Shown here: one piece after another, positions 10,543 through 15,037 of the stretch
Position numbering within the stretch: the stretch's first letter is position 1
Layout: every line of letters begins with the position of its first letter
IMG/VR virus record: IMGVR_UViG_2734482779_000004
Location: 1 to 27,850 of that record
Length of the DNA stretch: 27,850 nucleotides
Reading direction: 5' to 3' (one strand)
DNA from: a virus
Lineage: Duplodnaviria; Heunggongvirae; Uroviricota; Caudoviricetes
Program-made: the position numbers and the translations under genes
The notes under the pieces: model-generated
Databases searched by the model: none
Seen by the model: the letters and a program-made list of their open reading frames with translations, nothing else
Told to the model about the DNA's origin: nothing

Positions 10543-11073
10543 TCACACCATTCCGGGCAAATACATTTGCACTTCATTTGCCGCTCTCTCACGTGCAACA
10601 TGAAGCAATCTTTTTCGCCCACCAACGCCCCACTTAGCCATTTGGCTTGCGCACTGGCTTATCGCTTTGGTTTCAGTATTGATGATGTGATCGATTCTAT
10701 TCAGACGGGACATTGCGCCAACGCCGAGACGGACGACCGTTTTGAAAACTTCATAAACTTCGATTTCAAATTCCGGCTTAATCCATGCTGCATATCTGAT
10801 TGCCAGAAGTTCAACACCCCACACACCTGGTTCTGCACCACCTTTGATTATTTTAAGTGGTTGAATTTGTTCCAAAGTGCTTTTTTGCACTTTGGCCTCC
10901 AGTGCTTTTATGAAGCGTTTTATCTGCGCGCTACGCAAAAACTGGCTTGGGCGCTGTTGCTCTGTAGCCTCTCCATTTGCAACTGCTGCTGCATGGAGAT
11001 CGTTTAAGTTGTAGCGTCCATCCTCATCAACACGAACGGACACACCATTGACAATAACTATTTGGTGCTTCAT
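10543..11073 (-). CDS. KilA-N domain protein
   Basis: 176 aa. The N-terminal IVIVNGVSVRVDEDGRYNLNDLHAA pattern is the recognised KilA-N signature; the C-terminal 70 aa are not recognised. Confidence 0.6.
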   Translation of the reverse strand: MKHQIVIVNGVSVRVDEDGRYNLNDLHAAAVANGEATEQQRPSQFLRSAQIKRFIKALEAKVQKSTLEQIQPLKIIKGGAEPGVWGVELLAIRYAAWIKPEFEIEVYEVFKTVVRLGVGAMSRLNRIDHIINTETKAISQCASQMAKWGVGGRKRLLHVARERAANEVQMYLPGMV

Positions 11074-11724: not shown

Positions 11725-12197
11725 ACCTCAATCTCTCTGACCGTTCCGCCAGACTCTTTGAATTTTGCAATCAGGTTGTCAGCCTTATGCTCGAACTGAC
11801 CGTAACCAGCCCCCGGCAGTGAAGCCCAGATATTGCTGCAACGATCGATAGCCTGACGGATATCACCGCGATCAATCATCGGTAAAGCGCCACGCTCTTT
11901 AATCTGCTGCAATGCCACAGCGTCCTGGCTTTTTGGAGAGAAGTCTTTCAGGCCAAGCTGCTTGCGGTAGGCATCCCACCAACGGGAAAGAAGCTGATAG
12001 CGCCCGGCTGCTGTTGATTTGAGTTTTGGGTTTAGCGTGACAAGTTTGCGAGGGTGATCGGAGTAATCAGTGAATAGCTCTCCGCCAACAATGACGTCAT
12101 AACCATGATTTCTGGTTTTCTGCCGTCCGTTATCAGTTCCCTCTGACCACGCCAGCATATCGAGGAACGCCTTACGTTGATTATTGATTTCCACCAT
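11721..12197 (-). CDS. R: Endolysin, lambda R-type lytic transglycosylase
   Basis: 158 aa, nearly identical by recall to lambda R ([51 protein letters not shown]...). Confidence 0.95.
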
Positions 12198-12504
12198 CTT
12201 CTACTCCGGCTTTTTTAGCAGCGAAGCGTTTGATAAGCGAACCAATCGAGTCAGTACCGATGTAGCCGATGAACACGCTCGTTATATAAGCGAGATTGCT
12301 ACTTAGTCCGGCGAAGTCGAGAAGGTCACGAATGAACCAGGCGATAATGGCGCACATCGTTGCGTCGATTACTGTTTTTGTAAACGCACCGCCATTATAT
12401 CTGCCGCGAAGGTACGCCATTGCAAACGCAAGGATTGCCCCGATGCCTTGTTCCTTTGCCGCGAGAATGGCGGCTAACAGGTCATGTTTTTCTGGCATCT
12501 TCAT
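12181..12504 (-). CDS. S: Holin/antiholin, lambda S-type
   Basis: 107 aa beginning [22 protein letters not shown], the lambda S dual-start motif (Met1 antiholin, Met3 holin), with three TM segments. Confidence 0.95.
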
Positions 12505-12746
12505 GTCTTACCCCCAATAAGGGGATTTGCTCTATTTAATTAGTAATAAGGTCGATTACTGATAGAACAAATCCAGGCTACTGTGTTTAGTAATCAGATT
12601 TGTTCGTGACCGATATGCACGGGCAAAACGGCAGGAGGTTGTTAGCGCGACCTCCTGCCACCCGCTTTCACGAAGATCATGTGTAGAAGGCCGCAGCGTA
12701 ACTATCACTGATGAATTCAGGATAGCCAGTGGCTACGGCTCAGTTA

Positions 12747-12822
12747 TGGTGCTGGTTAACGGACTTGAACCGCTACCCATTCGCTTACAAGGCGACTGCT
12801 CTACCATTGGAGCTAAACCAGC
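12747..12822 (-). tRNA. tRNA-Thr (anticodon UGU)
   Basis: Hand-folded 76-nt cloverleaf on the minus strand: acceptor GCTGGTT/AACCAGC, D-stem GCTC/GAGC, anticodon loop CTTGTAA, T-arm AGCGG-TTCAAGT-CCGTT, discriminator A plus encoded CCA. Confidence 0.75.
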
Positions 12823-12827
12823 ATGTT

Positions 12828-12902
12828 TGGCGGGACAGCGTGGGCTCGAACCACGATAAGAAGGTTAACAGCCTTCCGTAATGACCTTTATACGACTGAC
12901 CC
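12828..12902 (-). tRNA. tRNA-Asn (anticodon GUU), slightly atypical
   Basis: 75-nt cloverleaf: anticodon arm GAAGG-CTGTTAA-CCTTC (loop identical to E. coli tRNA-Asn), T-arm CGTGG-TTCGAGC-CCACG, encoded CCA. The acceptor stem has one T-T mismatch and the D-stem is weak. Confidence 0.55.
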
Positions 12903-12965
12903 AAATAAAAAAAGCCACCGTTGCAACTTAAGAGTCACTAACGGCAGCTTACCTTCTAATTATGG

Positions 12966-13484
12966 CTAAATGGATAATTGCATGTCAAGGCTTTTAACAG
13001 CAACATGCTTAACTTTCTCAACACGTTTACGCATTTTGAAAGCATTTTGCATTGGCTGGTACAAAACAAATAACGACGCTTTCAGGATGTCGTCAATTTC
13101 GTTTCTACAGGTTGCCAGTGAAGGTTTTCTACATCCCTCGCCACCACGTCCACACATCTTGCGTGGCTTTGCAGTCGCGTGATAGTAGGATGCAATTGCT
13201 CGCTTAGATGAACCATGAGCGTAGTAGCTGAGGAGGATGCCAAAGGCTTTCTTGTCAATGTACATGACGGAATCGACGACCTGAGAAATCAACATTCCAT
13301 CATCATCATTACACATTGGCCTTGTCATAACTCTTCCCGGCTCTACGCTCTCCATGAACTTAGCTATTACGCTGCTCATGCGCTTTTCCAGACGACCTGA
13401 ATAAACCCATGCTCCCCACAGTTCAAGCCAGCCATTCAGCCACTCGTGCTGCTCTTTGGTGAGGTTTAGTTCTCTTATGCTCAT
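12966..13484 (-). CDS. Late-gene antiterminator Q (non-lambda Q type)
   Basis: 172 aa in the Q position (downstream of ninH, upstream of the lysis cassette) with a Cys-rich putative zinc motif CGRGGEGCRKPSLATC. Confidence 0.7.
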   Translation of the reverse strand: MSIRELNLTKEQHEWLNGWLELWGAWVYSGRLEKRMSSVIAKFMESVEPGRVMTRPMCNDDDGMLISQVVDSVMYIDKKAFGILLSYYAHGSSKRAIASYYHATAKPRKMCGRGGEGCRKPSLATCRNEIDDILKASLFVLYQPMQNAFKMRKRVEKVKHVAVKSLDMQLSI

Positions 13485-14028: not shown

Positions 14029-14315
14029 GACTTAATCTTCCCCTCCCTCAGCAGTATCGCCTGCGTTCTGATCACGCCTTCGAGGTGGTAAAGTCTGGCG
14101 TCTTTGTTGTCGAGATTATGGGTGCGTCGGTCGATTTCATCGTGACACGCACTACAAGCCCATGCACCGATCAGGTCGTCAGGCTTCATTCCCGTTCCGC
14201 AAATTCCAGCCATCCGGTAATGTGCCAGAACTGTAGTTTCAGGGTTGCCATTGCATACGCCGTAAATACGTACCTGGCATTCTCTGCCGCGCGCTTCTTT
14301 GCGTAGGTTAGCCAT
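14025..14315 (-). CDS. YbcO-like (DUF1364) putative zinc-binding nuclease
   Basis: 96 aa with Cys/His cluster (C..C, CSACHDEID) and position immediately upstream of rusA, as ybcO is in DLP12-type nin regions. Confidence 0.6.
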   Translation of the reverse strand: MANLRKEARGRECQVRIYGVCNGNPETTVLAHYRMAGICGTGMKPDDLIGAWACSACHDEIDRRTHNLDNKDARLYHLEGVIRTQAILLREGKIKS

Positions 14316-15037
14316 TAAGCAGCCTCCCCTGTTACTTTCAGCATTCCGTTATCGAGCAGCTTTCTGGTCAGCCACTGTTGACCACGCCCGGTGATTTTTG
14401 TGGTGAACGATATCTGTATTCCGTGATTTGTGTTGAACGCTGTTTCTTTCACTGTGAAATAGCCGCGATCCATATATTCCTGCATTGGCACATTGCGCCA
14501 GGAACCTGAAGCAATAAGGATTTTGTGATCGCGCATCCACGCAAACAGTTTGTTTGGACCAATTCCAACAACCTTTGCAAAGTTTCCAATCAAAATTCCG
14601 CTGGCCTCGCCAACGCGATCGGCAAACTCAACTTTAGGTGCGGCAATTGCGAGCTGGTTTTCCAGTTGCATTTTCTGCTCAGCAAGGTCAGCAGCAAGGC
14701 GCAACGCTTCCGGTAGAGTTTTGGGGATATTAACCGCAGCGTCTTCAAGTTCTCGCCAGCGGTCAACAAGGCGAGCGGTGAATTCCGGCGACAACTGGGC
14801 TACAACAACAATACTATCTCGCTTACCTTGTTCGCCTTCGAATACGTAATGCTCGTACTGAACATTGAATCCTAAGTTATTGATTCTTTCGGAAACCTCA
14901 ATTTGAGGAAGCCGGATAACACCATTTTTAGCCAGCGTTTCGATGGTACGTTTCACATTGTCATTACGCTTACCAACCAACTCAGCGATTTCAATGCTTG
15001 TCATTTTGATGGCATTGCCATTTATTAACTCATTCAT
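14315..15037 (-). CDS. Rha-family regulatory protein / antirepressor-like
   Basis: 240 aa; N-terminal Rha-type region (MTSIEIAELVGKRNDNVKRTIETL) and a C-terminal Ant/KilAC-like region. Confidence 0.7.
   Translation of the reverse strand: MNELINGNAIKMTSIEIAELVGKRNDNVKRTIETLAKNGVIRLPQIEVSERINNLGFNVQYEHYVFEGEQGKRDSIVVVAQLSPEFTARLVDRWRELEDAAVNIPKTLPEALRLAADLAEQKMQLENQLAIAAPKVEFADRVGEASGILIGNFAKVVGIGPNKLFAWMRDHKILIASGSWRNVPMQEYMDRGYFTVKETAFNTNHGIQISFTTKITGRGQQWLTRKLLDNGMLKVTGEAA

Follow-up and report, generated by a model that had tools for sequence, protein, structure and literature searches.

The lambdoid phage 21 has been described in the literature as having "2 tRNA genes", and the annotation of Sf6 lists, in order, the late promoter pR', a qut site, the terminator tR', tRNA-Asn and tRNA-Thr, each marked as 'similar to phage 21'. 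tRNA genes occur at the same locus in Salmonella phage L, 46 bp downstream of the start of the late mRNA; the paper describing them states that Sf6 carries Asn and Thr 'here' and leaves undecided whether tRNAs at this place are cut out of the late mRNA or made from a promoter of their own (PMC8022706). In Stx-converting lambdoid phages, too, tRNA genes separate the Q/pR'/tR' module from the first late genes, and they seem to be transcribed from a promoter of their own located between tR' and stx (PMC7547250).

Phage tRNAs of this kind have also been studied in connection with nucleases that cut host tRNAs. P2 Old, the nuclease of classical P2-lambda interference, kills by cutting the host tRNA-Thr(UGU), thrU, at a paired CNG motif formed by nt 28-30 and 40-42, and it also cuts Asn(GUU) and Lys(UUU), more slowly (PMC12445682). 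Phage tRNA-Thr(UGU) genes, including that of phage 21 when carried on a plasmid, rescue cells from P2 Old (PMC12445682, 2025). Old+ Gam+ cells rescued by tRNA-Thr alone form small colonies. The phage 21 tRNA-Thr, which combines C28U/G42A with a shorter anticodon stem, is partly cleavage-resistant in vitro; resistance needed the motif change and the shortened stem together, and anticodon changes in a rescue tRNA abolish protection from Old (PMC12445682). The PARIS nuclease AriB cleaves host Lys(UUU) and Thr(UGU) and, less efficiently, Asn(GUU), at a site between nt 40 and nt 41, next to a U36AAU39 motif that the three tRNAs have in common, and substitutions of U39 and A41 in tRNA-Lys abolish or reduce its cleavage (PMC12409363). 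The Lys, Thr and Asn variants encoded by phage T5 together neutralise PARIS (PMC12409363).

Here we compare with these systems a tRNA pair found in a P22-like, HK620/Sf6-type E. coli phage mosaic. The whole stretch of DNA analysed, 27,850 bp in length, is referred to below as the window.

Identity and context of the two tRNA genes

Within the window, ARAGORN called two tRNA genes and no more, and Rfam recovered the same two; both are encoded on the minus strand, in the sense of the late transcript. The tRNA-Asn(GUU) gene occupies 12828..12902 (75 nt, G73) and the tRNA-Thr(UGU) gene 12747..12822 (76 nt, A73), each with an encoded CCA; the 5-nt spacer AACAU, read directly from the sequence, lies between them at 12823..12827 on the same strand, and the order in the transcript is Asn, then Thr. 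The Rfam model RF00005, for which a gathering score of 29 is the threshold for a tRNA call, matched both genes end to end, with 61.5 bits (E = 3e-11) for Thr and 53.0 bits (E = 6.4e-9) for Asn. The initial annotation had described a tandem of tRNAs in the Q-S interval, separated by 5 nt and oriented with the late transcript, and had named tRNA finders as a check; ARAGORN accepted both genes, and the two programs bore out the exact coordinates.

Single-sequence minimum free energy folding yielded a cloverleaf for Thr and for Asn, the Asn fold not being set apart from those of shuffled sequences (z = -1.09). Two non-standard pairs are present in Asn, U4·U69 in the acceptor stem and U13·U22 in the D stem; the first of these is the acceptor-stem mismatch that had been reported earlier, and it is real. 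In Thr, the anticodon stem is cut to 4 bp by a G27·A43 mismatch. The E. coli AsnRS recognizes G34, U35 and U36 together with G73 as identity elements, and the identity elements for ThrRS are G1-C72, C2-G71, G35 and U36. Read from the sequence, the window Asn has GUU and G73, and the window Thr has G1-C72, C2-G71 and UGU. Sequence comparison further indicated that Asn is intact in G73, the GUU anticodon, the T-loop and the encoded CCA. Both genes are intact and of the canonical elongator type, and they look functional.

Upstream of the pair on the same strand is the late antiterminator gene Q (12966..13484, minus strand), an ORF encoding a 172-aa protein of the phage-21 type (Pfam Phage_antitermQ PF06530, E = 1.1e-25) that is collinear with Sf6 gene 59, annotated as 'similar to phage 21 Q', and with the Q of HK75. 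The late promoter pR' (TTGACA-18 nt-CATAAT; 12959..12988, minus strand) overlaps the 3' end of Q. It matches 11 of 12 sigma-70 positions, was the sole sigma-70-like site returned by a promoter scan of 12400-13100, and has the sequence that is annotated as pR' in HK75 and in Sf6, where it is called 'nearly identical to phage 21 late promoter'. Next comes tR' (12903..12949, minus strand), the intrinsic terminator of the short leader RNA, which was assigned from its fold and from the Sf6 and HK75 annotations. It consists of a hairpin followed by U7AUUU and folds at -20.8 kcal/mol, compared with -12.3 ± 2.6 for shuffled sequences (z = -3.35; 0 of 200 shuffles as stable). A consensus terminator scan of 12400-13100 found no terminator; it missed tR' because the loop of this hairpin exceeds the 8-nt limit of the scan. 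The 5' end of tRNA-Asn lies 1 nt after the T-run of tR'.

Between the CCA of Thr and the start codon of S is a lambda-like late-mRNA leader (12505..12746, minus strand), which folds at -89.8 kcal/mol as against -60.8 ± 4.6 kcal/mol for shuffles (z = -6.3). Several long hairpins form in this leader, among them GGCAGGAGGU/ACCUCCUGCC at 12629-12660 and another just before the dual start of S; the relatives of the leader, at 96-99% identity, are too alike for a covariation test. S itself (12181..12504, minus strand) is an ORF for a holin/antiholin of 107 aa with the dual start MKM, is homologous to Sf6 genes 60/61 and to lambda S, and is the first gene of the late operon, so that S, R and Rz are found downstream of the tRNA pair on the same strand. 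Farther along, between Rz and the head genes, the window encodes a 176-aa KilA-N protein (PF04383, E = 7e-18; 10543-11073, minus strand), and a second KilA-like ORF is located at 14315-15037, upstream of nin-type genes; both look like accessory ('moron'-type) genes. An origin of the tRNAs as an attP or integration site was rejected, as no integrase is nearby and the genes are inside the leader of the late operon.

The promoter scan of 12400-13100 returned no promoter besides pR', and the gap from tR' to Asn is too short to hold one. Given that the tRNA genes have neither a promoter of their own nor room for one, we infer that their expression depends chiefly on Q-mediated read-through of tR'. 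The tRNAs would be made mainly by Q-modified RNA polymerase that initiates at pR' and reads through tR', and they would then be excised from the head of the late transcript, probably by RNase P and 3' trimming. A hint of expression may be seen in the BTP1 transcriptome paper, where the tRNA pair is set apart from the list of genes with TPM > 100.

Distribution of the cassette

By every feature tested, the pair is a member of the phage 21/Sf6 late-leader tRNA cassette, and as such it was already known. The window Thr is identical to that of phage 21 (AJ237660) at 76 of 76 positions and the window Asn at 74 of 75, with C in place of U at T-loop position 60; the 171-nt cassette region as a whole is 99.4% identical. 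In Sf6 (AF547987), the whole Q-S interval is 97.9% identical and Asn again differs at 1 nt, position 60. The C60 variant of Asn is common to the window and eight other loci. The Sf6/phage 21 group shares with the window the order and spacing of the genes, their site right after tR' and the lambda-like leader that continues to S. The same cassette is also found in BTP1, SPN9CC, HK446, mEp506, Kapi1 and many P22-like and lambda-like prophages, and the Q-S interval of the window is 97.9-98.8% identical to those of CurroJimenez_Bas106, HF4s, vB_EcoP-720R6 and Sf6. Among phage records, 185 matched the Q-S interval, and the pair occurs in about 190 (185-196). Of 5426 complete E. coli genomes, 369 (~7%) carry the cassette, annotated by PGAP as tRNA-Thr and tRNA-Asn, and it was also found in at least 120 IMG/VR contigs. 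Across 122 loci the 5-nt spacer is near-invariant, being mostly AACAU or AACAC with a few other single-base variants.

Several variants of the arrangement were observed. In at least one genome, that of H57 (NZ_CP100958), PGAP annotates only tRNA-Thr and omits tRNA-Asn. One IMG/VR contig (IMGVR_UViG_2657245634_000025) has an Asn body in which the anticodon is changed from GTT to GAT, along with three further substitutions, and ARAGORN calls it tRNA-Ile; either a sequencing error or a switch of specificity could account for it. Nine loci have a chimeric second tRNA in which positions 1-25 correspond to the phage tRNA-Thr and the remainder resembles host thrU, and ARAGORN rejects most of these. 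For one of the nine, L096, the match of the 3' part to MG1655 thrU is perfect. The chimeras suggest recombination or gene conversion between the prophage tRNA and host thrU. In the Klebsiella lambdoid phage ST16-OXA48phi5.2, the genes that come after Q are Asn-Phe-Thr-Arg. Asn(GUU) followed by Thr(UGU), with a 2-nt spacer, also occurs in the P1-like RCS47 and in the 108-kb phage Cyrano, where the tRNAs are of another lineage, whose acceptor stem is fully paired. Recurrence of the Asn-Thr adjacency in unrelated phages suggests a shared selective pressure on this pair.

A replaceable slot behind tR'

The window, Sf6, HK75 and lambda were compared in an alignment across the Q-S interval. From the end of the Thr CCA to the S start codon, 234 of 243 positions are identical to lambda (96%), including the GGCAGGAGGU/ACCUCCUGCC hairpin, in agreement with the earlier description of the S-proximal flank, with its stem-loop upstream of S, as lambda-like. 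The same description had the tRNAs inserted into a lambda-like spacer, and a simple insertion of this kind does not fit the alignment. The upstream half of the interval (Q, pR', qut and tR') is of the phage-21 type with a layout identical to those of Sf6 and HK75. In lambda and HK75, unrelated sequence, 165-205 bp long, fills the slot. HK75 shares with the window Q, pR', tR' and the leader that runs to S, the tRNAs being replaced by ~205 bp; in lambda, Q, pR' and tR' are of its own type, ~165 bp of unrelated sequence follows tR', and the leader after it is the shared one. The bounds of the cassette are the T-run of tR' on the 5' side and the Thr CCA on the 3' side. In all of the 122 loci the cassette abuts the T-run of a terminator, which is of the 21 type in 99 loci, of the lambda type in 16, and of at least three other types in the remaining seven. 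The tRNAs are therefore no insertion into an intact lambda spacer: they are one of several alternative fillings of a slot that begins at the tR' T-run and ends where the shared leader starts, and their presence reflects a cassette swap.

The DNA that fills the slot in HK75 and lambda was searched with ARAGORN and with Rfam (E ≤ 5), and no tRNA was found in it. The HK75 slot (~1690-1822) has a cloverleaf-like fold with a 7-bp closing stem, a hairpin resembling a D arm (GCUC AAUGGC GAGC) and, followed by ACC, a T arm of consensus sequence (GCCGG UUCGAUU CCGGC); its middle part is expanded by ~76 nt. The Rfam tmRNA model matches the T-arm/acceptor part at 20 bits (E = 3e-5), which is below threshold. 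It may represent the remnant of a tRNA or an unusual tRNA-like element. At the same place in lambda (NC_001416, ~44858-44945) there is a 9-bp closing stem, both strands of which are changed with respect to HK75. The idea that lambda contains a hidden tRNA was dropped, the only signal being the sub-threshold tmRNA-model match in HK75.

The precision of these joints raises the question of whether the cassette is mainly an RNA-processing or recombination element, with decoding incidental. Cleavage at the tRNAs by RNase P/RNase E might serve as 'punctuation' to separate the late mRNA from the qut/tR' leader; alternatively, the cassette might be a conserved joint at which modules are exchanged. Such a role would suit the exact fit of the cassette bounds to the tR' T-run and the Thr CCA, the occurrence of the cassette behind at least four terminator types and before lambda-like as well as other leaders, the tRNA-like T-arm/acceptor relic at the same right-hand joint in HK75, and the unusual degree of structure in the downstream leader. 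However, lambda and HK75 work without tRNAs in the slot, and neither the conserved anticodons and identity elements nor the same Asn and Thr pairing at unrelated loci in P1-like and other phages is explained by it. In addition, a tRNA-Thr identical to that of the window has decoding-dependent activity, in that anticodon changes in a rescue tRNA abolish protection (PMC12445682). We consider a processing or recombination role as the main function very unlikely.

The acceptor-stem mismatch of tRNA-Asn

The mismatch in the acceptor stem had led to the suggestion that tRNA-Asn is weakly functional or decaying. U4·U69 is present in 117 of the 122 loci, among which the Asn sequence is almost invariant; the exceptions are single loci with G·U, U·G and U·C and two apparent ones that come from one-base indel offsets. 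Three Asn lineages that have diverged from one another (A, B and C) also keep the mismatch, although other pairs of the molecule have changed in a compensatory manner. In the type B Asn of three loci, the D, anticodon and T stems differ, with every difference compensated, and in type C, from the Klebsiella lambdoid phage, pairs 6-67, 7-66 and 28-42 are compensated; both retain U4·U69. The type B Asn has, with the same acceptor stem, A8 in place of the near-universal U8, a 7-nt D loop and a 5-nt variable loop.

A covariation test on 12 distinct Asn sequences and 19 pairs found double-sided change in 8 of the 19 pairs, and 0 of 500 shuffles reached the observed values. Paired cells made up 89.9% of the total, compared with 33-57% when the partners were slid by 1-3 columns. 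Pair 4-69 was the exception, being unpaired in 10 of the 12 distinct sequences. That U4·U69 has been kept amid compensatory changes elsewhere argues that it is a conserved trait of this Asn lineage, with no erosion.

The reading of tRNA-Asn as a decaying or weakly functional pseudogene thus draws on the non-standard U4·U69 and U13·U22 pairs, on a single-sequence fold that shuffles match (z = -1.09), and on the omission of Asn by PGAP in some genomes such as H57. It has to be set against a gene that is near-invariant in 122 loci, 117 of them with the U·U; against lineages B and C, which compensate other stems or pairs and still keep it; against eight pairs with double-sided change, a level no shuffle attained; and against the intact G73, GUU anticodon, T-loop and CCA and an Rfam score of 53 bits where 29 is the threshold. 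Decay appears extremely improbable.

Nuclease determinants in the anticodon stems

The window anticodons, UGU and GUU, are those of host tRNAs targeted by both Old and AriB. To locate the determinants of the two nucleases, nt 36-41 and nt 28-30/40-42 were compared between host, window and T5 tRNAs, with the T5 Lys matching the published sequence (PMC12409363) and thereby validating the numbering. Host thrU reads UAAUCA at nt 36-41 and CUG/CAG at nt 28-30/40-42, and the window Thr reads UAAGCG and UCG/CGA; Thr thus differs from its host counterpart by U39G, A41G and C28U/G42A, in addition to the G27·A43 mismatch. Host asnT reads UAAUCC and CGG/CCG, compared with UAACCU and AAG/CUU in the window Asn, which therefore carries U39C, C41U and C28A/G42U in a full 5-bp anticodon stem. 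The corresponding T5 sequences are UAAGCA and UUG/CAU for Thr, UAAACC and UGG/CCA for Lys, and UAAGUU and CAU/UUG for Asn. Both window tRNAs lack U39 and the C28-G42 pair, which are the determinants of the two nucleases in the host counterparts.

On these grounds, we think it probable that the pair represents late-expressed replacement tRNAs that resist the OLD-family Toprim tRNases of rival prophages, with extra decoding of ACA a secondary matter. Rival P2-like prophages and P4-like satellites carry such nucleases (P2 Old and PARIS AriB), and the phage tRNAs would replace the host tRNAs that these nucleases destroy. The window Thr should protect against P2 Old, as has been demonstrated experimentally for the identical tRNA-Thr of phage 21 (PMC12445682). 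For Asn, resistance to such nucleases is suggested by the sequence of its anticodon arm.

Several observations limit how far replacement of destroyed tRNAs can be taken. Resistance of Asn to Old has against it the full 5-bp stem, given that Thr needed stem shortening as well as the motif change. An anti-PARIS role has against it that tRNA-Lys(UUU), the main AriB target, is absent from the cassette; since T5 requires its tRNA-Lys to bypass B185 PARIS (PMC12409363), the pair alone should not defeat this system. P2 old was found, at ≥85% nucleotide identity, in 17 of 5426 complete E. coli genomes, as against 369 of 5426 for the cassette. P2 Old is therefore too rare to be the only driver, and as the sole explanation of the frequency of the cassette it was rejected; a broader set of nucleases would be needed. 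A homologue of Gam, the classical trigger of Old, was not found among the early-left ORFs tested, which belong to RecT, HNH, Gp157, Ead/Ea22, DUF551 and similar families, in a window that covers part of that region. We found no literature linking a lambdoid tRNA-Asn to defence.

A more specific proposal is that, in temperate phages of enterobacteria, Asn and Thr form a dedicated counter-defence cassette against OLD-family Toprim tRNases in which U4·U69 is a selected anti-determinant. The mismatch would hide tRNA-Asn from a nuclease that reads parts of the tRNA outside the anticodon stem, and AriB has been reported to need contacts distal to its cleavage site. Acceptor-stem tRNases such as CdiA-CT toxins are further candidates for a nuclease that this anti-determinant would evade. 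We regard this proposal as possible and, for now, on the doubtful side.

Codon usage

The older explanation for such genes is pure codon supplementation, in which the tRNAs boost the decoding of codons favoured by the late genes relative to the host, independently of any defence. A codon-usage comparison, which the initial annotation had proposed for ACA and the Asn codons, gave different answers for the two tRNAs. ACA is enriched about 2-fold in phage genes: per 1000 codons it occurs 16.6 times in the late genes and 19.9 times in the early-right genes of the window, compared with 9.4 times in a sample of ordinary E. coli genes and 3.6 times in genes for ribosomal proteins and elongation factors. 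As a share of Thr codons, ACA accounts for 29-41% in the window, 17% in ordinary E. coli genes and 6.5% in the ribosomal and elongation-factor set. No enrichment was seen for Asn codons, which amount to 42.0-49.5 per 1000 in the phage versus 42.1 in ordinary host genes, with a similar share of AAU; a codon deficit therefore does not explain the Asn gene.

The enrichment of ACA keeps codon supply viable for Thr, for which extra ACA decoding is plausibly a benefit. It is helped by the fact that thrU is the sole ACA-reading tRNA in MG1655 (PMC12445682), and for Asn the phage L paper had proposed supplementation in the coat gene (PMC8022706). Nevertheless, use of Asn codons in the phage is close to that of ordinary host genes, and supplementation leaves unexplained why both tRNAs differ from the host precisely at positions 39 and 41 and at the 28-42 pair, and why the tRNAs chosen are two of the three main targets of AriB. 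Burman et al., comparing tRNA abundance with codon use in phage arrays, likewise found no direct support for the codon-bias hypothesis. We hold it unlikely that codon supply by itself accounts for the pair. High use of ACA also makes the phage especially vulnerable to the loss of thrU, and if the tRNAs serve primarily to replace nuclease-targeted host tRNAs, added decoding of a codon that the phage uses ~2 times as often as the host would come as a secondary benefit.

Comparison with known systems

As a sequence feature, the pair is an ordinary, widely annotated tRNA cassette. Its tRNA-Thr is identical to one of the few temperate-phage tRNAs with an experimental anti-defence role, that against P2 Old, and for its companion, tRNA-Asn, there is good reason to suspect the same function, directed at Old and nucleases of the PARIS type. 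What may be added to the published picture is modest, namely the conservation of U4·U69 and the suggestion that Asn shares the anti-Toprim-nuclease logic of Thr. The mismatch and the terminator-abutting site offer testable handles on how temperate phages may time the supply of their own tRNAs and keep it protected.

Beyond phage 21 and Sf6, the nearest described locus is that of phage L (PMC8022706), which is ~89% identical to the window over the cassette region and has a tRNA-Asn of the same lineage. Its second tRNA is Leu(UAA), where the window has Thr(UGU), and its holin module is of the P22 type. The Stx-converting phages share the position of the genes but differ in expression, the window having no room for a promoter comparable to the one that appears to act between tR' and stx. 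They also carry other tRNA specificities than the window, their cluster being ileZ-argN-argO. The closest functional parallel is T5, in whose Lys(UUU)/Thr(UGU)/Asn(GUU) set (PMC11464382, PMC12409363) two of the three anticodons match those of the window. Both sets lack U39 beside the AriB cut site and have weakened or altered anticodon stems. The tRNA bodies of T5 are unrelated to those of the window, however, and T5 supplies Lys(UUU) as well; its tRNA genes form a large array served by dedicated promoters, whereas the window has two genes in a late leader that is predicted to depend on Q.
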